A stretch of DNA of 64,000 nt from an uncultured Formosa sp. (GTDB taxonomy: Bacteria; Bacteroidota; Bacteroidia; Flavobacteriales; Flavobacteriaceae), in contig NZ_CANMTH010000011.1 of the NCBI RefSeq assembly GCF_947500765.1, positions 14,968-78,967 on the forward strand, read 5' to 3'. Each line of letters opens with the position of its first letter. Within the stretch, counting starts at the first letter, position 1. The position numbers and the translations under genes are program-made. Of this stretch, positions 6,809 to 18,937 are shown piece after piece. Under the pieces are notes generated by a model. The model was not told where the DNA came from, searched no databases, and saw only the letters and a list, made by a program, of their open reading frames with translations.

Positions 6809-8068
6809 TTATAAATTTTCCCATTTAAACATAGGTTTTATATAACCAGGTTCTTTACCCATATAACTTCCAATTTCTAAATCACCGTTAATTACTGTAA
6901 AACTCAATATATTATCTTCAACCCATACTGCTCGTTTTCCATCCTTAACGAAAAAGAATTTAAGAAAGAATGTTCCAGGGTTAAAAAAATAGGCAGGAAC
7001 AATAGTTTTTAAGTGATTTTTACCTTTATTTAATTTTATTTCAGTTTTTAAATGATGAAAACTGAATAGAGTATCACCTTCATCGTTTATTAAATGGAAA
7101 GTGACATGATATTTTTCAGGTTCACTATCAATATTTAATATTGTTTCTAAAACTATTTCTTCAGACTCTACAATAACAGCTTCATTATCTCTATTAAGAT
7201 TGCGTAATCCTATTTCTAAAAGTTCAAAAACTCCATCTTGTTTTAAATCACTAAACTTCCTAACGTTGTTAATTATAACATTTCCTGATTTTAAATAAAA
7301 ATTCACAGCTTCTTCTGTTCCGCCTTCAAAAACAGTTTTGCCATTTTCAAGGACAATGGCTCGGGTACATAAATTCTTAACCGCAGCCATATTATGACTC
7401 ACAAACAACACAGTTCTCCCATCTCCCTTACTTATGTCTTGCATCTTCCCAATGGCCTTCTTTTGAAATTCAGCATCACCCACGGCCAGTACCTCATCTA
7501 TCACTAAAATATCGGGCTCTAAAAAAGCCGCTACAGCAAAAGCTAAACGTACACGCATCCCAGAAGAATAGCGTTTTACAGGCGTATCTACATAGCGTTC
7601 GCACCCACTAAAGTCTATAATCTCGTCTTCTTTGGCTTTTATTTCAACCTTAGTCATTCCTAGAATGGCTCCGTTTAAGTAAATATTTTCACGCCCCGTT
7701 AATTCCGGATGAAACCCTGTACCCACTTCTAATAAACTAGCAATACGGCCACGGGTTTTGATTTCTCCTGTGGTTGGGCTGGTTACCCGCGACAAGATTT
7801 TTAATAAAGTCGATTTTCCTGCACCGTTTTTACCAATGATTCCTAAGACTTCGCCTTGTTGCACTTCAAAATTAATATCTTTAAGTGCCCAAGCATATGC
7901 ACTCTTACCTTTACTACTACGATCGTTAACTTCTCCAATCTTTAAATACGGATCTTCCTTTCCTCGAATACGATGCCACCAACGGTTTAAATCGTGACTA
8001 ATAGTACCTGTACCTATCAATCCTAGGCGGTATTGTTTACTTATATTTTCTGCTTTAAGGATGATCAT
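6809..8068 (-). CDS. wzt: Polysaccharide ABC transporter ATPase with C-terminal Wzt carbohydrate-binding extension
   Basis: GKNGAGKST, LLEVGTGFHPELTGRENI, YSSGMRVRLAF, DEVLAVGD, VSH; about 160-aa C-terminal beta-rich domain. Confidence 0.93.
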   Translation of the reverse strand: MIILKAENISKQYRLGLIGTGTISHDLNRWWHRIRGKEDPYLKIGEVNDRSSKGKSAYAWALKDINFEVQQGEVLGIIGKNGAGKSTLLKILSRVTSPTTGEIKTRGRIASLLEVGTGFHPELTGRENIYLNGAILGMTKVEIKAKEDEIIDFSGCERYVDTPVKRYSSGMRVRLAFAVAAFLEPDILVIDEVLAVGDAEFQKKAIGKMQDISKGDGRTVLFVSHNMAAVKNLCTRAIVLENGKTVFEGGTEEAVNFYLKSGNVIINNVRKFSDLKQDGVFELLEIGLRNLNRDNEAVIVESEEIVLETILNIDSEPEKYHVTFHLINDEGDTLFSFHHLKTEIKLNKGKNHLKTIVPAYFFNPGTFFLKFFFVKDGKRAVWVEDNILSFTVINGDLEIGSYMGKEPGYIKPMFKWENL

Positions 8069-8148
8069 TACTTATAATGGGTTGTATTGGTTTTTGGTCA
8101 TTTACTAACGTTTACAGACTATAGTAGCCCGTCTACCAAAATAATGGG

Positions 8149-8156
8149 CTAATATA
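8149..8156 (-). promoter_or_regulatory. Putative -7 promoter element (TATATTAG) for wzt
   Basis: One-base variant of Bacteroidota TAnnTTTG about 80 bp upstream of wzt; the same variant lies upstream of wzm (13376-13383). Confidence 0.4.
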
Positions 8157-8291
8157 ATAAAAGCATACGACTTAAAAGTTTTGAATTATTATTAATTCTA
8201 GGACTTAAAAATTCACCGCTTAAAAAAAATCCCCCACAAAACGGTATCATAAAATCAACTGAAATACAGCACAAAAAAAAACCCCATAGAA

Positions 8292-8650
8292 CTGTCAAGC
8301 ATAGCAAGGCACGCAGCGAAGCATCTCATCAATAAAACCTAAATCATGAAACCAACTGTCATGCAGAGCGAAGAGCAACGAAGCGAAGCATCTCACGAAC
8401 AAAACCACAAATCACAAAACCAACTGTCATGCAGAGCGCAGCGAAGCATCTCTCCAATAGAACCTAAATTAAAACATCTAGTAAATAAGATTCCTCCTAC
8501 CGTCGGAATGACATTGAAACCCAAATCATGAAACCATCTGTCATGCAGAGCAAAGCGAAGCATCTCTCCAATAGAACCTAAATCACAAAACCAACTGTCA
8601 TGCAAAGCGAAGAGCAACGAAGCGAAGCATCTCTCCAATAGCACCTAAAT
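8292..8650 (+). repeat. REP-like palindrome array I (about 5 TGTCATGC..GCATCTC units plus one inverted GTCATTCC..GGAATCT unit)
   Basis: Repeated CTGTCATGCAGAGCGCAGCGAAGCATCTC-type cores separated by about 30-bp AC-rich, mutually similar linkers. Confidence 0.92.
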
Positions 8651-8663
8651 TACTTTTAACAAC

Positions 8664-8888
8664 TCACCATTTCACCAACTTACCATTAACCACCCGACTA
8701 AGCAAAGCCCGTAACACATCATCATAAGGCACTTTAAAATACTCACTATACTCCCGAATAGTAACCTGTTTTCGATTAACAATATTATATTCCTGACGAA
8801 TATCTTGTATGTATCGCTTAGCCGTTTTGTTACAAACCCCCATAAGGATTGCAACATCATTACTATTTAAAAACATACGATATCCCAT
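8664..8888 (-). CDS. Small (about 70-74 aa) putative helix-turn-helix DNA-binding protein
   Basis: LNSNDVAILMGVCNKTAKRYIQDIRQEY...QVTIREYSEYFKVPYDDVL fits an excisionase/MerR-like HTH pattern; start moved from 8984 to the ATG at 8888 (or 8876). Confidence 0.6.
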   Translation of the reverse strand: MGYRMFLNSNDVAILMGVCNKTAKRYIQDIRQEYNIVNRKQVTIREYSEYFKVPYDDVLRALLSRVVNGKLVKW

Positions 8889-9306
8889 TCTGTATAACAC
8901 TTTATACCATTGCCATGTATTATTATATTTTAACGAAATAACCTCTAATATGAACCACCAACTCCACTGAAAGTAAAACATCACAACCCAATAAAAAGAG
9001 AAAATGAACTAATGCAAACCCAAATTCAAGTGAGGAAAACATGCGAAGACCTTGAAGACTAAAACCCACAACACACTCATAATAAGACGATTATTATTTT
9101 TTTCAACACAATAAAAGTGCCATAAATAAAAAAACGAAGTAAATACTTGCAATAAAATGCATTTTAATCCTACAATACACTTAAAAAAATCGGTAGCTCC
9201 ATCGCCACTAAATCAGCTATATCACTGACCTAAACGCTATAATAAAGCATCTGAGAGACGCCGTTTAAAAAAAAAGGATAAAATAATAAATCAAGGCTTT
9301 ACTACA

Positions 9307-9350
9307 GATACGTCATATCAAAGCCATACCAAAGCCATAGATACCTTATG
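9307..9350. repeat. Four 11-bp tandem units
   Basis: GATACGTCATA TCAAAGCCATA CCAAAGCCATA GATACCTTATG. Confidence 0.6.
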
Positions 9351-9390
9351 GGGAGTATATGAAAACCTATAGCCCACAGCATGATAAAAT

Positions 9391-9490
9391 CTAGAAAAAA
9401 CAGGAATAAACAGGAATAAACAGGAGGATATAGGACGATATAGGAAATTCTAATACGAAATAAGAAATTGTAAGAACATTAAGGAACCTT
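9391..9490. repeat. Phased 10-bp repeat tract (about 10 units)
   Basis: (C/T)AGGAA or TAAGAA-like motif starting at 9401, 9411, 9421, 9431, 9441, 9461, 9471 and 9481. Confidence 0.7.
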
Positions 9491-9725
9491 TTAAAAAACG
9501 ATAAAGCTCTTATTGTAATTTAGAACTAAGAGATCGCATAAACCCATGTATTGTTGAATAACATGTAAGCATTAGCCAAACGCATCCCGGGGACCTACAT
9601 AGGTTTATAGATCATAAGTTTTAACCGCAGGTTGTAGCACATCGAAATGCACAAAACAGCTAAAATCACGCATGAGTTTGTGGCTAAAATTCAACAGTTA
9701 TAACCTGCATAAATTTTATAAGATC

Positions 9726-10475
9726 ATGGCAAAATACAAATCATTATTTAATGTAGAAGGCTCTATCGGAGAGGTAACCTTCTATAAAGGAGAAGACGGA
9801 TACTACATCCGGTCTAAAGGCGGTGTAAGCAAAGACCGCATATTAAACGATCCTGCGTTTGTGCGAACACGAGAAAACAATACTGAATTCGCACAATCGG
9901 CAACATCTGGCAAGCAACTGCGGCACGCCATTACAGCCTTGTTAACAGATGCTAAAGATAATCGGATGACATCCAGATTAACACAAGTGATGAGTCGTGT
10001 GAAGAATGCCGACTTAACTTCAGCAAGGGGGCAACGAAAAGTAAGTATCGGAATCACAACTAACGATGGTAAAGATGCCATTAAGGGATTCGACTTTAAC
10101 AACAATGCGCTTTTAAACAGTGTTTTACTTGAAGCGTTTACATTAGATACTACGACTGGCGAAATTAGTATACCTAATTTTATACCCTCGCAGCAGTTAA
10201 ATAGCCCAAGCGGTGCAACACATGTGAGTTTTAACGCAGGCTTCTTAAATCTGAATTTCAACGATAACATTTCAGATTTACAAGTCAGCCCTACTGTAAA
10301 TTTAGTCATTAACAACACAGCAGCGCCCTTAACGTTAACGCCCGCAACCACGCCCACAGGTACTGGAACCCCGTTTTATTTTTTTAAGATTACATTCTAT
10401 CAAGATGTAAACAACACCCAATACCCCTTAAAAAATGGAGCCTTTAATGTCTTACAACTTATTGAAGTATTGTAA
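9726..10475 (+). CDS. 249-aa hypothetical protein of a family I recognise as recurrent in Bacteroidota; function unknown
   Basis: Long ORF with its own terminator; EGSIGEVTFYKGEDGYYIRSKGG...NDPAFVRTREN N-terminus, helical middle, beta-rich C-terminus; likely start MAKYKS at 9726. Confidence 0.8.
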   Translation: MAKYKSLFNVEGSIGEVTFYKGEDGYYIRSKGGVSKDRILNDPAFVRTRENNTEFAQSATSGKQLRHAITALLTDAKDNRMTSRLTQVMSRVKNADLTSARGQRKVSIGITTNDGKDAIKGFDFNNNALLNSVLLEAFTLDTTTGEISIPNFIPSQQLNSPSGATHVSFNAGFLNLNFNDNISDLQVSPTVNLVINNTAAPLTLTPATTPTGTGTPFYFFKITFYQDVNNTQYPLKNGAFNVLQLIEVL

Positions 10476-10494
10476 ACAAGGTGTATCCCATTTT

Positions 10495-10525
10495 AAAATC
10501 CTCGTCCCCCCGAGGATTTTTTTTT
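10495..10525 (+). terminator. Intrinsic terminator
   Basis: AAAATCCTCG-TCCCCC-CGAGGATTTT followed by a T-run, 20 bp after the stop. Confidence 0.85.
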
Positions 10526-10539
10526 AAATCAAACCAGTA

Positions 10540-11585
10540 ATCATGCAAAACAAAGTAAAGCATCTCTCCTATAGAACCTAAATCACAAAACCAACTGTCA
10601 TGCAGAGCGGAGAGCAACGAAGCGAAGCATCTCACCAATAAAACCTAAAATCACAAAACTAACTGTCATACAGAGCAAGGAACGCAGTGAAGTATCTCTC
10701 CTATAGAACCTAAATCATAAAACCAACTGTCATGCAGAGCGCAGTGAAGCATCTCACCAATAAAACCTAAAATCACAAAACCAACTGTCATACAGAGCAA
10801 GGAACGCAGCGAAGTATCTCTCCTATAGAAATTAAATCATAAAACCATCTGTCATGCAGAGTGAAGAGCAACGAAGCGAAGCATCTCACCAATTGAACCC
10901 AAATCATGAAACCATTTGTCATACAGAACGCAGCAAAGCATCTCTCCTATAGAACCTAAATCACAAAACCATCTGTCATGCAGAGTGAAGAGCAACGAAG
11001 CGAAGCATCTCACCAATTGAACCTAAATCATGAAACCATCTGTCATGCAGAACGCAGTGAAGCATCTCTCCTATAGAACCTAAATCATAACATACAATAA
11101 ATAAGATTCCTCCTACCGTCGGAAATCGTAGATTCGACGCAGTCAATGACATTGCCCCCAAAATCATAAAACTAACTGTCATGCAGAACGCAATGAAGCA
11201 TCTCTCCAATAAAACCTAAAATTACAAAACTAACTGTCATGCAGAGCGCAGCGAAGTATCTCTCCAATAGAAACTAAATTTAAACATCTAGTAAATAAGA
11301 TTCCTCCTACCGTCGGAATGACATTGAAACCCAAATCATGAAACCATTTGTCATACAGAGCAAGGAACGCAGCGAAGCATCTCACCAATAAAACCTCAAT
11401 CATGAAACTAACTGTCATGCAGAGCGCAGTGAAGCATCTCACGAACAAAACCTAAATCAAAACATCTAGAAATAGATTCCTCCTACCGTCGGAAATCGTA
11501 GATTCGACGCAGTCAATGACATTGCCCCAAAAATCACAAAACCATTTGTCATACAGAGCAAGGAACGCAACGAAGTATCTTTCAA
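10540..11585 (+). repeat. REP-like palindrome array II (about 14 direct units plus 3 inverted ATTCC..GGAAT units)
   Basis: 57-69-bp periodicity of the same core as array I. Confidence 0.95.
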
Positions 11586-11647
11586 TTCACCCCCAATAAC
11601 AAATAATCCAAATTGAATTAGTCACCATTTTTTCATAAATTAATAAC

Positions 11648-11953
11648 ATGAAAACAAAAGGCGCTCATAATTATTATGTCTACATCTTAACCAATAAAAA
11701 CAAAACTGTTTTATATACAGGTGTAACAGGAAATTTAAAAGAACGCTTATACATTCATAACAATCCGCAGTCCTTTTCTAAAGCATTTACAGCAAAATAT
11801 AATTGTATTTTCTTAGTCTATTACGAACATTTTTTCTGCATTGAAACAGCGATCAGAAGAGAAAAGCAAATTAAAGGGTACAGCCGTATAAAGAAAAACA
11901 AACTAATTTCAGAGTTTAATCCTAATTGGAACTTTTTAAATGATAAGATTTAG
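11648..11953 (+). CDS. Stand-alone GIY-YIG nuclease (UPF0213-like)
   Basis: YYVYIL...LYTGVT (GIY-YIG), LKERL (Arg), AIRREKQIK (metal-binding Glu), FNPNW (Asn). Confidence 0.92.
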   Translation: MKTKGAHNYYVYILTNKNKTVLYTGVTGNLKERLYIHNNPQSFSKAFTAKYNCIFLVYYEHFFCIETAIRREKQIKGYSRIKKNKLISEFNPNWNFLNDKI

Positions 11954-11970
11954 AGGTAAGATAAACCTAC

Positions 11971-12450
11971 AAAATCACAATCACAACTGTCATGCAGAGC
12001 GGAGAGCAACGTAGCGAAGCATCTCACCAATAAAACCTCAATCATGAAACTAACTGTCATGCAGAACGCAATGAAGCATCTCTCCAATAGAACCTAAATC
12101 ATAACATACAATAAATAAGATTCCTCCTACCGTCGGAAATCGTAGATTCGACGCAGTCAATGACATTGCCCCAAAATCATGAAACCGACTGTCATGCAGA
12201 ACGAAGAGCAACGAAGCGAAGCATCTCACCAATAGAAACCAAAATCATGAAACTAACTGTCATGCAGAACGCAGTGAAGCATCTCTCCTATAGAACCTAA
12301 ATCATGAAACCAACTGTCATGCAGAACGCAGTGAAGCATCTCTCCTATAGAACCTAAATCATGAAACTAACTGTCATGCAGAACGCAGTGAAGCATCTCT
12401 CCTATAGAACCTAAACCATGAAACCAACTGTCATGCAGAACGCAGTGAAA
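11971..12450 (+). repeat. REP-like palindrome array III (about 7 direct units plus 1 inverted; near-perfect 57-bp tandem at 12244-12450)
   Basis: ATCATGAAAC(T/C)AACTGTCATGCAGAACGCAGTGAAGCATCTCTCCTATAGAACCTAA starts at 12244, 12301, 12358 and 12415 (last partial). Confidence 0.95.
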
Positions 12451-12474
12451 TAGCTTTAAAAGACGACATGCTAA

Positions 12475-13356
12475 CTAAACCGTATCAATAAATTTCTTCT
12501 CTGTACTATTAAAGACTATAAGTCCGAATAAAAACACTAAGACACTCACTATACCAATATACAGCAATTGAGACACAGAAATCTCTCCAACCCCCAAAGT
12601 AATATAACGGAACGCTTCAATAACAATAGTCATAGGATTATAAGCCACAAGCCAAGATACACTTGGTAACTTCTCTTCAAAAAAGGATAACGGATACATC
12701 ACTGCCGAGCCATACATTAATAACTGTACACCAAACGTTACCAAGAAAGTTAAATCACGATATTTTGTGGTCATAGACGAAATAAGCATTCCAAAACCTA
12801 ACCCCAAAAGCCCCATAATAAGAACCAAAACGGGTAATAGTAGTAAACTAATTTGCGGACTTGCAGCATATGCAGCATCGGTAAAACTCACATAATACAC
12901 GTAGAAACCTATAAATACCAATAACTGAATGGCGAATTTCACCAAATTAGACACCACAATAGACATCGGAATAATCACACGAGGGAAATAAACTTTCCCG
13001 AATATGGCTTGGTTTTTTGTAAATGTATCGCTAGTTCCTGTCAGACATTCTTTAAAATAATTCCATGCAGTAATCCCTGCCAAGTTAAACAAAAAAGCAG
13101 GTACGCCTGGCTTTACAGGAATGGCTGCCAAGTTATTAAAAATGACTGTGAATATAATAGACGTAAATAATGGTTGAATAAAATACCATAGTGGTCCAAG
13201 TATGGTCTGTTTATATACCGTGACAATATCACGTTTTACAAATAAGAATAATAAATCCTTGTACCTCCATATTTCCTTAAAATTAAGATCTACTAATTTA
13301 CGCTTCGGAGAAATGGTATATAACCAAGGAAGTTCTTGTTGGTCTGATGGATTCAA
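12475..13356 (-). CDS. wzm: Polysaccharide ABC transporter permease
   Basis: EIWRYKDLLFLFVKRDI...YKQTILGPLWYFIQP, GKVYFPR, NPMTIVIEAFR. Confidence 0.93.
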   Translation of the reverse strand: MNPSDQQELPWLYTISPKRKLVDLNFKEIWRYKDLLFLFVKRDIVTVYKQTILGPLWYFIQPLFTSIIFTVIFNNLAAIPVKPGVPAFLFNLAGITAWNYFKECLTGTSDTFTKNQAIFGKVYFPRVIIPMSIVVSNLVKFAIQLLVFIGFYVYYVSFTDAAYAASPQISLLLLPVLVLIMGLLGLGFGMLISSMTTKYRDLTFLVTFGVQLLMYGSAVMYPLSFFEEKLPSVSWLVAYNPMTIVIEAFRYITLGVGEISVSQLLYIGIVSVLVFLFGLIVFNSTEKKFIDTV

Positions 13357-13617
13357 TGTACTGATTTTAGATGCGCTAATATAACAAATGCATCGGAATT
13401 ATAAATTATGATTTAAGATTAGTTGTTTTTAGTTATGAGGTATTCTGATTACTGAGTTTTCATGCTTAATACTCGCATACTATCTCGTTTATTTTATTGC
13501 ATTTAAATAGCACCTTACATCAAGAGTTTGCTTTTTTCACATTCCCGTTAACCTAAATGGTATTCAGGTTATAATTCAAATGGGCTTTTGAAAACTTGTT
13601 TGTTAAAAAAAACACAG

Positions 13618-13926
13618 TGTCATTCCGACGATAGGAGGAATCTATTTCCAGATGTGTTTAATTTAGTTTCAATTGGAGAGATGCTTCGCTGCGTGCCTTG
13701 CTCTGCATGACAGTCAGTTTCATGATTTTTGGTTTCAATGTCATTGACTGCGTCGAATCTACGATTTCCGACGATAGGAAGAATCTATTCCAGATGTGTT
13801 TTGATTTAGTTTCTATTGGTGAGATGCTTCGCTGTGTGCCTTGCTCTGCGTGACAGTCAGTTTCATGATTAAAGATTCAATGTTATTGACTGTGTCGAAT
13901 CTACAATTTCCGAGGTACAAAGAATC
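13618..13926 (-). repeat. REP-like palindrome array IV, inverted relative to arrays I-III
   Basis: TGTCATTCCGACGATAGGAGGAATCT and GAGATGCTTCGCTGCGTGCCTTGCTCTGCATGACAG are reverse complements of array units. Confidence 0.9.
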
Positions 13927-15334: not shown

Positions 15335-15811
15335 AAATAAGCTTTTGAATTAAAGATACAAAGGAAACATTTATATCTCAAATGTAAGTAATCGCTTAAT
15401 CATTAATAATTAAATGTCATTCCGACGCAGGAGGAATCTATAAACTATTGTTTATGTTGTCTTGATGTTCATTTTGCCTTGATGCAGATCCTTCGACTTC
15501 GCTCAGGATAGACCAAGCCAAAAGATCAAATGAATTTATAGGTCATTACTGCGTAGCATTCACTACCGAAGATTCATGCTTACTACTGCGTAGTACAGTT
15601 CCGCTTCTTCGTTCATTATGACTGAAAATTCATGGAGGTTCTATTGATGATTTATGTATAGGATTATGTTTTTGCTTTCTTTGATAATATGCTCTAATAG
15701 ATTCCTCGTGCCTCGGAATGACATTGGATTACTTTCAGATATTTAGATGTTTATTGATTCTCAAAGTTTTTTCAACCATAAATCACTAATTGTAGTAATG
15801 GCCTATCTAAA

Positions 15812-16032
15812 GGGTATCGTAAAATGTGCAGTGCACAGTACGTAAAATTTTAAGCTGTTTGAGCATGATCAAAGTTGATTAATGCTATTGATATTAATAT
15901 ACCCATGTTTTGATTAGGATTACATAATTACAAGCGAGTTCTTAAAATTTAGTACTGAAGCCTAACATTTAGATACGTTTTAGTCAGCCTAGCTTTTTTT
16001 GGTTCGTTTTTTTAGCGATGAAAAAAATGAAC
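15812..16032 (+). ncRNA. Structured Flavo-1-like element, copy 1
   Basis: Nested stems GTATC/GATAC, TAAAATGT/ACATTTA, CAGTAC/GTACTG, AAATTTTAAG/CTTAAAATTT around CTGTTTGAGC..GCGAGTT, then a GTTCGTTTT..AAAATGAAC hairpin; Flavo-1 resemblance recalled, not computed. Confidence 0.55.
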
Positions 16033-16427
16033 ATATTAAAAATAGATTCCTCGTATCTTGGAATGACATTGGATTTATTATCATATAATAATTTGTTGTA
16101 CAGATCCTTCGCTATCGCTCTGGATAAACCAAGCCAAAAAATCAAATGAATTTCTAGGTCATTACTGCGTACCATTCACTACCGAAGCTTTATGCTTACT
16201 ACTGTGTAGTGCAGTTCCGCTTCTTCGTTCATTATGACTGAAAATTCATGGAGGTTCTATTGGTGATTTATGTATAAGATTATGTTTTTGCTTTCTTTGA
16301 TAATATGCTCTAATAGATTCCTCGTACCTTGGAATGACATTGGATTACTTTCTGATATTTAGATGTTTATTGATTCTCAAAGTTTTTTCAACCATAAATC
16401 ACTAATTGTAGTAATGGCCTATCTAAA

Positions 16428-16648
16428 GGGTATCGTAAAATGTGCAGTGCACAGTACGTAAAATTTTAAGCTGTTTGAGCATGATCAAAGTTGATTAATG
16501 CTATTGATATTAATATACCCATGTTTTGATTAGGATTACATAATTACAAGCGAGTTCTTAAAATTTAGTACTGAAGCCTAACATTTAGATACGTTTTAGT
16601 CAGCCTAGCTTTTTTTGGTTCGTTTTTTTAGCGATAAAAAAAATGAAC
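16428..16648 (+). ncRNA. Structured Flavo-1-like element, copy 2
   Basis: Same stems as copy 1, offset +616. Confidence 0.55.
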
Positions 16649-17106
16649 ATATTAAAAATAGATTCCTCGTATCTTGGAATGACATTGGATTTATTATCAT
16701 ATAATAATTTGTTGTACAGATCCTTCGCTATCGCTCTGGATAAACCAAGCCAAAAGATCAAATGAATACTCTTTTTATCTTCTCTGTTCATTTTGTCTTG
16801 ATACAAAACGAACCAAAAAATCAAATGAATTTCTAGGTCATTACTGCGTAGCATTCACTATCGAAGCTTCATGCTTACTACTGCGTAGTGCAGTTCCGCT
16901 TCTTCGTTCATTATGACTGAAAATTCATGGAGGTTCTATTGGTGATTTATGTATAGGATTATGTTTTTGCTTTCTTTGATAATATGCTCTAATAGATTCC
17001 TCGTACCTTGGAATGACATTGGATTACTTTCTGATATTTAGATATTTATTGATTCTCAAAGTTTTTTCAACCATAAATCACTAATTGTAGTAATGGCCTA
17101 TCTAAA

Positions 17107-17327
17107 GGGTATCGTAAAATGTGCAGTGCACAGTACGTAAAATTTTAAGCTGTTTGAGCATGATCAAAGTTGATTAATGCTATTGATATTAATATACCCA
17201 TGTTTTGATTAGGATTACATAATTACAAGCGAGTTCTTAAAATTTAGTACTGAAGCCTAACATTTAGATACGTTTTAGTCAGCCTAGCTTTTTTTGGTTC
17301 GTTTTTTTAGCGATGAAAAAAATGAAC
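17107..17327 (+). ncRNA. Structured Flavo-1-like element, copy 3
   Basis: Same stems as copy 2, offset +679. Confidence 0.55.
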
Positions 17328-17677
17328 ATATTAAAAATAGATTCCTCGTATCTTGGAATGACATTGGATTTATTATCATATAATAATTTTTTGTACAGAT
17401 CCTTCGCTATCGCTCTGGATAAACCAAGCCAAAAGATCAAATGAATTTCTAGGTCATTACTGCGTAGCATTCACTATCGAAGCTTCATGCTTACTACTGC
17501 GTAGTGCAGTTCCGCTTCTTCGTTCATTATGACTGAAAATTCATGGTTTATAATCGTGATTTTGGTTTTAATAATTACTTATTTGCTTAAACAGCTTAGA
17601 ATTTTATGAGTTGTTCACTGTATATTTTACGTTACACTCTCGATAGGCCTAAGTCTTCACGATTTCACAACTCACCA

Positions 17678-18937
17678 CTAAGTCTTTTGCTTCTTCTTTT
17701 TTGCAGCAGGAAACAAGACATTATTTAGGATTAAACGATATCCTGGAGAAGTAGGATGTAGTTCTAATTCTGTTTTTGGGTCTCCAACTTTATGGGTATA
17801 ATCTTCAGGATCGTGACCACCATAGAATGTAAAGAATCCTTTTCCTTTTATACCGTGTATATATTTTGCTTCACCATTACTTTTATTCTCTCCTAGAATT
17901 AAAACATTCGATTTAATTTCATCGCGTGTAAACGACGTTGTTTGTCCCATAAACCCTTTAACCAAAGCGGTATGATTCTGACACAACATTGTAGGTACAG
18001 GATCCCATTTTGCAGAAAAGTCCATTAATGAAAAATAATCTGCATCTTTTAAAATCCGACGTTTAGACGTCATATCTATAGACGAAAACTCATACACCTT
18101 CGGATTGCGCTCTAAAGTATAATTTGTAAAAGCAAAGGTTTTAGCATAGTCTATCTGTTTCTGATAATTAGGATCGCTCCCATCGCCATCAAACATGGCT
18201 TCACAAATATCGACCCCTTCGGCAGACAACGCAATATCGAAAGAATCGGTCGCACTACACATGGCAAACATAAATCCGCCACCAACCACATAGTCTCTTA
18301 TTTTTAAAGCCACAGCCAATTTCTCATCAGAAACCTTGTTATAACCTAAACGTTTGGCCAAAGCTTCGGCTTCTTTTTTATCTTCTATATACCAAGCAGT
18401 CGTTTTAAAACTATTATAAAACTTACCAAATTGGCCAGTAAAATCTTCATGATGCAAATGCAACCAATCGTAAAGCAGTAAATTATCGTTTAAAACATCT
18501 TCATCGTAAATCGTTGTATACGGAATCTCGGCATAGGTTAACACCATTGTTACGGCATCATCCCAAGGTAATTTTCCTTTAGGTGTATATACTGCTATTT
18601 TTGGTGCTTTTTCTAGTACTACAGCTTCCATATTCTGACTTGGACTCTCTATTAATTCTAGAATTTGCTCTGATTTAGACGTCGATAAGACTTCGAAAGA
18701 CACGCCTCGAATCTGGCATTCTCGTTGAATAGCATCTGTATCTGGTAATAAAAAAGAACCACCTCGATAATTTAACAACCACTTTACTTTAAGTTGTTTA
18801 TCGAGTGCCCAATACGTCATACCATATGCTTTTAAATGATTTTTTTGCCCATCGGCATCCATAGGAATCAGAATATATGATGCAAATGTGTTTGCCGAAA
18901 GCAATAAACAGAATAAGACGAATAGAATGCGTTTCAA
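17678..18937 (-). CDS. Conserved exported Bacteroidota protein with probable class I glutamine-amidotransferase-like fold
   Basis: Signal peptide MKRILFVLFCLLLSANTFA; DWLHLHHEDFTG; GGFMFAMCSATDSFD nucleophile-elbow-like Cys. Confidence 0.6.
   Translation of the reverse strand: MKRILFVLFCLLLSANTFASYILIPMDADGQKNHLKAYGMTYWALDKQLKVKWLLNYRGGSFLLPDTDAIQRECQIRGVSFEVLSTSKSEQILELIESPSQNMEAVVLEKAPKIAVYTPKGKLPWDDAVTMVLTYAEIPYTTIYDEDVLNDNLLLYDWLHLHHEDFTGQFGKFYNSFKTTAWYIEDKKEAEALAKRLGYNKVSDEKLAVALKIRDYVVGGGFMFAMCSATDSFDIALSAEGVDICEAMFDGDGSDPNYQKQIDYAKTFAFTNYTLERNPKVYEFSSIDMTSKRRILKDADYFSLMDFSAKWDPVPTMLCQNHTALVKGFMGQTTSFTRDEIKSNVLILGENKSNGEAKYIHGIKGKGFFTFYGGHDPEDYTHKVGDPKTELELHPTSPGYRLILNNVLFPAAKKKKQKT

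Follow-up and report, generated by a model that had tools for sequence, protein, structure and literature searches.

How does a solitary gene for a 101-aa GIY-YIG nuclease come to lie within a large array of small repeats, and do gene and repeats belong together? The question is raised by the 64,000-nt stretch of DNA analysed here (the window), which is part of contig C11 of a 4.36-Mb genome of an uncultured Formosa sp. (32% GC, 232 contigs). A preliminary description of the locus, which was unsure whether such a nuclease-repeat pairing had been formally described, recovered the partnership independently from the sequence alone. The partnership is real, and it has already been described, in the Ssn nucleases with their NTS/SRM motifs (PMC11893778). 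Judged from the sequence comparisons presented here, it is highly probable that the gene encodes an Ssn-family single-stranded DNA (ssDNA) nuclease and that the units surrounding it are its cognate hairpins.

Chenal et al. (2025, Nat Commun 16:2388) described the NTS of Neisseria as a hairpin carrying a CGTC tag, a stem beginning with AT and a C after the stem (PMC11893778). SsnA of Neisseria meningitidis, a 94-aa single-domain GIY-YIG protein (cd10448, GIY-YIG_unchar_3), binds NTS only as ssDNA and cuts a few nucleotides upstream; the three nucleotides before the stem weigh most in cutting and the C after the stem in binding, and the loop tolerates change or extension (PMC11893778). Double-stranded DNA, plasmid DNA and RNA are not substrates, and RNA is not bound. 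Ssn-related motifs (SRM) lie near 71% of the Ssn homologues, the other 29% being reported without them, and the analogy of Ssn to IS elements and REP/RAYT was offered in the Discussion as a hypothesis only (PMC11893778). As an enzyme class, site-specific ssDNA endonucleases were described only in 2025, and they are of interest as ssDNA-cutting tools.

The nuclease gene and its family

The gene occupies positions 11648-11953 on the plus strand and is assigned to the ssn type from its open reading frame, its Pfam match, its invariant residues and its grouping with NTS-bracketed proteins. The GIY-YIG domain of Pfam (PF01541) covers residues 8-81 of the protein (E 2.1e-14), Pfam revealed no second domain or extension past it, and NCBIfam holds no model matching the nuclease or the two neighbouring ORFs. 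Alignment with 34 relatives shows no variation at residues Y12, Y23, G25, R33, H37, E60, R71, E72, K76, R80, K83 and N91, which agrees with the earlier account of a lone GIY-YIG protein with intact Tyr, Arg, Glu and Asn motifs. Among them, Y12, Y23 and E72 are the counterparts of Y6, Y17 and E64, the catalytic Tyr/Tyr/Glu of SsnA, which have been mutated in published work (PMC11893778). The two tyrosines are spaced by 11 as in SsnA, and the Tyr-Glu spacing is 49 against 47, a difference explained by a two-residue insert.

GIY-YIG homing endonucleases of the I-TevI type, in which the nuclease is joined to a separate DNA-binding domain, are encoded in introns or as free-standing phage genes. This candidate was rejected, as the protein has no separate DNA-binding domain beyond its 101 aa and its context is chromosomal and intergenic.

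A sequence search of the PDB with the 101-aa protein returned no Ssn structures and matched UPF0213 proteins only, weakly (1zg2, E 0.0018; 1ywl, E 0.037). The family placement was established through loci carrying the Neisseria motif. Among the matches listed, 80 loci (L032-L111) were collected by the exact NTS pattern, and two of them (L108 and L109) hold a homologue of the 101-aa protein (36-43% identity, E 2e-14) whose gene is bracketed within a few nucleotides by exact canonical NTS. In a phylogenetic tree these two proteins group with all relatives of the 101-aa protein, while UPF0213-type proteins lie a very long branch away. By sequence, the protein in the window belongs to the NTS/SRM-flanked GIY-YIG clade (cd10448), a placement made by proxy of the L108 and L109 proteins. 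In the genomes of N. lactamica and N. mucosa, reached via NTS loci, the only GIY-YIG genes found were a UPF0213-type gene and uvrC, and the UPF0213-type gene inspected in Neisseria had no NTS adjoining it. At least 112 stretches contain the exact NTS consensus of Neisseria, and their lineages are very diverse, including, among the matches listed, Dehalococcoidia, Planctomycetota, Latescibacterota, Verrucomicrobia and many Proteobacteria.

Repeat units and arrays around the gene

The units share a tag-stem-tag architecture, with a core that runs from GTC through a stem beginning with AT (ATGC or ATAC, and ATTCC in a second type), a loop and the complementary half-stem to a C, and is followed by a conserved 32-nt linker. 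They read ..CTGTC-AT..AT-CTC, and a typical 57-nt unit, at 12300-12356 on the plus strand, consists of a 25-nt tagged hairpin core and the 32-nt linker. The Watson-Crick inverted repeat comprises only 4-5 bp (ATGC..GCAT, ATAC..GTAT or ATTCC..GGAAT) and encloses loops of 13-23 nt. In the main type the interior, as read off the sequence, is AGA, a 2-bp stem with a loop of 3 nt to 13 nt, and GAA, which could stack by non-canonical G-A pairs and a small inner hairpin.

When folded as ssDNA with nearest-neighbour parameters, whole units of the ATGC/ATAC type are no more stable than shuffled sequences (z +0.4 to -0.8), and a long ATTCC variant reaches z -1.4 to -1.6. The stem is instead backed by covariation across loci. 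Compensatory variants (ATGC..GCAT and ATAC..GTAT) coexist within the array, alongside a combination with a G-T pair (ATGC..GTAT) and a unit with a mismatch (ATAC..GCAT). Across loci, GTCAT sites are closed by a complementary half-stem followed by ATC in 67% of cases near the gene and in 9% far from it (Fisher p 8e-55), with 18 distinct half-stem variants among the closed sites. The word palindrome, used in the preliminary description, is thus appropriate to the 4-5-bp inverted repeat, and overstated for the 57-67-nt tandem units, which fold no better than their shuffles.

The upstream array (10540-11580, plus strand) contains 14 head-to-tail units of 57, 65 or 67 nt with the core GTC-ATGC/ATAC..GCAT/GTAT-C, interleaved with three ATTCC-type units on the minus strand to give 17 in total, and has a higher-order period of 122-124 nt. 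The downstream array (11969-12458, plus strand) contains seven ATGC-type units on the plus strand, the last truncated, and one ATTCC-type unit on the minus strand, eight in all; three of its 57-nt units are 94% alike. These counts, like the related units announced at 8.3, 13.6 and 15.4-17.4 kb, stand as first reported. The segments 11972-12176 and 10958-11162 are 93% identical, and the nuclease gene therefore sits between direct repeats. TRF likewise recovered periods of 57, 67 and 122-124 nt, at scores (as high as 676) that set the units apart from chance. That the arrays grow by tandem duplication is demonstrated by the near-identity of 57-nt units and by the higher-order repeats of 122-124 nt.

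Of the other repeats, an array of the same unit types lies at 8290-8650 (plus strand), with four units on the plus and one on the minus strand, and repeat comparison revealed that further related units, which point the other way, lie upstream of wzm (13615-13913, minus strand). Repeat comparison further identified, at 15485-17700 on the minus strand, 616/679-nt composite repeats with tagged hairpins of an ATTCC-GAGG type; the composite unit is present in three to four copies, and its minus-strand ORFs of 63-84 aa are repeat-derived and probably not genes. The ATTCC-type unit occurs in a short and a long form. The long form, recognised by repeat comparison and folding at 11104-11163 (minus strand) and present again at 11474-11533, 12118-12168 and 13727-13786, carries a 21-nt insert right after GTCATT; the insert is edged by ATT on both sides and makes a second hairpin with better pairing. 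A CRISPR-like array was considered and rejected, the 'spacers' being conserved portions of the repeat unit.

The units resemble NTS in that oriented hairpins, each with an AT-first stem preceded by a GTC tag and followed by a C, lie on either side of the gene, and the locus resembles Ssn loci in a protein of about 95-100 aa made up of the GIY-YIG domain alone with conserved Tyr/Tyr/Glu, in variable loops that are tolerated, and in the absence of an HUH transposase. They differ from NTS/SRM, which have GC-rich stems of 7-10 bp in hundreds of dispersed copies, by an AT-rich stem of 4-5 bp that leads into an AGA/GAA internal loop with a small hairpin inside, and by the arrangement of units of 57-67 nt in head-to-tail tandem arrays. 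The host also differs, being a member of the Bacteroidota, the source of most of the protein-atlas clusters nearest to the window and a phylum outside the main-text discussion of Chenal et al. (PMC11893778). A second kinship is with the CGTC-tagged REPs of Di Nocera, De Gregorio and Rocco (2013, BMC Genomics 14:522), known from five phyla including Bacteroidetes, which 'apparently lack a dedicated transposase' (PMC3733652). These have a terminal CGTC or TGTC tag, a nearly always AT-first stem and a short unpaired tail, with stems of 8-9 bp, loops of 4-5 nt and mainly head-to-head dimers, head-to-tail arrangements being 'negligible' (PMC3733652). The units in the window share the CGTC/TGTC tag, the AT-first stem and the short tail, and differ in their 4-5-bp stems, 13-23-nt loops and head-to-tail order; the first impression that the repeats are REP-like holds for them as tagged hairpins.

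The published degenerate SRM pattern, which does detect canonical NTS, matched nothing in the window or in 30 homologous loci, and matched two sites in the whole genome against one in a reversed control. Together with the short stems (4-5 bp against 8-9 bp in the described families) and folding equal to that of shuffles, the lack of pattern matches in the window counts against the Ssn assignment. The pattern is a search aid rather than a definition. By its protein and the logic of its motif the locus in the window is a member of the Ssn family with a motif variant outside the published search space. A short-stem hairpin variant that escapes the SRM search is new, as are hairpin units in head-to-tail arrays. 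The Ssn partnership thereby reaches a lineage of low GC content whose hairpins are AT-rich, much shorter and undetected by the published pattern, and since short-stem hairpins are missed by that pattern, part of the 29% 'motif-less' Ssn homologues may have divergent motifs.

Linkage of nuclease and hairpins

The association was followed in the 30 best homologous loci, which come from other genera of the family and were picked on protein similarity only. In all 30 the nuclease gene has tagged hairpins as its immediate neighbours, which establishes the linkage across genomes. In 20 loci taken with 10 kb on either side, hairpin density is 9.2 per kb within 250 nt of the gene and about 0.1-0.2 per kb beyond 1.5 kb, against about 0.05 per kb in a reversed-sequence control, an enrichment of about 60-fold near the gene. 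Hairpin type also varies with the nuclease: the nuclease clades have hairpin types of their own, and distances between proteins are correlated with those between hairpin cores (Mantel r 0.44, reached in 0 of 5000 permutations, although shared ancestry inflates such tests). Nuclease and repeats are accordingly, on the sequence comparisons, a true pair, with chance excluded. The pairing, the palindrome enrichment around short GIY-YIG genes and the co-phylogeny of nuclease and flanking repeat, all raised in the preliminary description, are borne out by these data, the last subject to the same caution about ancestry. Many distinct nuclease/hairpin pairs within one bacterial family constitute a ready source of new specificities.

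Within the genome itself, the exact unit family of the window is confined to the neighbourhood of the nuclease gene. The wider tag-stem-tag superfamily amounts to about 85 units, not dispersed and clustered in about a dozen places, with arrays on C3 (near 555 and 566 kb), on C9 (near 57-58 kb), at the start of C11 and on small contigs. A genome-wide count is uninformative, as a 4-bp stem easily arises by chance (300 matches to the generic tag-stem-tag pattern against 267 in the reversed genome, barely above control), and only clustering and position are telling. Two of the three largest arrays, on C9 and C3, do not adjoin a nuclease gene. The former (C9:57400-58400) consists of 20 ATTC-type units with a period of 46-47 nt, resembling the hairpins on the flanks of the window nuclease's nearest homologues from other genera, and the latter (C3:565700-566900) of 15 units of the ATTCC-GAGG type; neither has a nuclease gene nearby. 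The genome has only two short GIY-YIG genes. The second, an Ssn-type gene of 98 aa, fills the trpB-trpA spacer (C4:357100-357510; L168:2128-2510) and has one degenerate hairpin on each side, with the GTC tag lost (TTC and ATA instead).

REP/BIME elements with a RAYT, the REPtrons, were reportedly described by Nunvar (2010), Bertels and Rainey (2011) and Ton-Hoang (2012). The present system is like them in outline, with tagged imperfect hairpins, mosaic clusters, a small nuclease gene flanked by them and, by analogy with SsnA, putative ssDNA recognition. It is unlike them in its enzyme (GIY-YIG instead of an HUH Y1 transposase), in its tag (GTC instead of GTAG) and in the absence of a RAYT from the genome. 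A whole-genome search for the RAYT/IS200 transposase domain (PF01797), which did give matches in control genomes, yielded at best 18 bits, below the 23-bit cut-off and inside a 1361-aa frame on C8. The system is thus free of a RAYT, as first proposed, and none flanked by the same repeats was found elsewhere in the genome.

Probable mechanism, possible mobility and function

By analogy with SsnA, the 101-aa protein would be a site-specific ssDNA endonuclease with the CGTC/TGTC-tagged, REP-like hairpin units as its Ssn-related motifs. The protein would bind a hairpin whose strand has become single-stranded, as may happen in replication, repair or DNA uptake, recognise the GTC tag ahead of the stem and the C behind it, and nick the tagged strand only, a few nucleotides 5' of the tag; we infer such cleavage of ssDNA from the characterised enzyme. 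The structure-specific nickase of cruciforms or supercoiled plasmids envisaged earlier is unlikely, because characterised Ssn proteins bind only the ssDNA hairpin and are inactive on dsDNA, plasmid and RNA. Breaks made by the nuclease and repaired by recombination between units would help to lengthen arrays and to remove or replace cassettes, and we infer that they may act as a driver of array growth; that the nuclease 'drives amplification and spread' of the arrays, as was suggested at the outset, is kept as a hypothesis, one that Chenal et al. put forward in their Discussion too (PMC11893778).

The biological role of the pair may be that of a selfish cassette or of a Neisseria-like, ssDNA-directed control of recombination, two tentative readings that are mutually compatible and equally doubtful at present. 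In the former, gene and hairpins would form an autonomous mobile cassette with the GIY-YIG nuclease as the mobilising enzyme (REPtron- or IS-like, without HUH), seeding and spreading arrays. The patchy, multicopy distribution of the family favours this, with homologues in 128 of 201 genomes of the same bacterial family in one to nine copies, some with stop codons and many at contig ends. So does the trpB-trpA spacer. In two congeners (G209 and G210) and in a genome of another genus (G004) it measures 2-9 nt; six congeners, the present genome among them, have a 380-nt cassette there (type A, truncated in G207), and three others an 800-990-nt cassette (type B). The type B nuclease is 45-50% identical to that of type A and is accompanied by a different hairpin array with longer stems. 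In a TrpA+TrpB tree the present genome, a type A carrier, is sister to a type B carrier with 97/99 support. The wzm-wzt spacer, which ranges from about 100 nt to 4.4 kb, is likewise in keeping with a mobile cassette.

The spacer data show gain and replacement of cassettes and, as sequence comparisons, fit active mobility and homologous replacement via the flanking genes alike. Homologous recombination through trpB and trpA can explain swaps between close relatives. Against a mobile cassette stand also the existence of gene-less arrays, the absence of a readable target duplication and the variable geometry of the ends, in which no fixed IS-like orientation of the nearest flanking hairpins was found (+/- in only 8 of 21 two-sided loci, with all other combinations occurring); strand-transfer activity is not known for Ssn. 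A wider form of the same idea, for which we likewise see only a limited chance, would see in the Ssn genes and their hairpins cassettes that mobilise themselves, as GIY-YIG equivalents of REP/RAYT or IS200-type elements. They would enter the very short gaps between genes transcribed together (trpB|trpA, wzm|wzt), replace each other there and seed head-to-tail arrays, and the short-stem variant would be an unrecognised large branch missed by the published search. The cassette turnover between trpB and trpA in congeners is new, and its presence, absence and replacement offer comparative material on cassette mobility, a matter left open by the published work (PMC11893778).

The alternative of a domesticated function, possible but similarly uncertain, holds that the nuclease cuts incoming or exposed ssDNA at its motifs, as in Neisseria, and so modulates recombination around the genes it flanks, here those of the wzm/wzt polysaccharide ABC exporter. 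In N. meningitidis, DNA that carries NTS transforms about 5-fold better once SsnA is lost, and the NTS of that species are clustered near surface-related genes (PMC11893778). In the window the arrays surround wzm (12475-13356, minus strand; Pfam ABC2_membrane) and wzt (6809-8068, minus strand; ABC_tran, with a sub-threshold Wzt_C match of 22.3 bits against a 30.4-bit cut-off). The two genes are 4.4 kb apart, and the gap between them (8069-12474) is occupied by arrays, the nuclease gene and two ORFs without Pfam or NCBIfam match, one of 106 aa (8664-8984, minus strand) and one of 267 aa (9672-10475, plus strand). The region is highly variable among congeners; the spacer is about 100 nt in another genus and 500-800 nt in several congeners, and in G205 an orthologue 87% identical to the window gene adjoins wzm. 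A host function is made less probable by the number of motifs in the genome, only about 85 and clustered, and by the position of the second gene copy in the trp operon, away from surface genes.

Near wzm, G207 has a homologue 77% identical to the 267-aa ORF, and both ORFs have weaker matches upstream of wzm in G002. A further congener (G018:C30:35933-38679; L197, L206) contains two tandem copies of wzm, separated by tagged hairpins and accompanied by a distant Ssn-type gene (42% identity).

Improbable by comparison with the foregoing is the view that the repeats are mainly RNA elements, such as terminators, stabilisers or small RNAs, among which the nuclease gene merely lands. The units do lie between and downstream of genes, and many tagged REPs have been argued to be transcribed (PMC3733652). 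However, Rfam, including Flavo-1, gave no match to the arrays at the gathering score or with E relaxed to 1, conservation falls precisely on the tag bases required by SsnA on DNA, hairpin type follows nuclease clade, and RNA is not bound by SsnA (PMC11893778). Weakest of all, and in our opinion safely dismissed, is the chance location of a housekeeping UPF0213/YhbQ-type GIY-YIG protein beside a repeat-rich spacer, as suggested by similar size, a common fold family and the weak matches to 1zg2 and 1ywl, since the similarity is marginal, a very long branch parts the 101-aa protein from that type, hairpins are linked to the gene at all 30 loci with about 60-fold enrichment, and the family is patchily present with pseudogenes.

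At 10431-10525, the position of the terminator hairpin after the 267-aa ORF, the only Rfam hit was recorded, a sub-threshold match to the family Phe_leader (32 bits against a gathering score of 55), which is most likely spurious.
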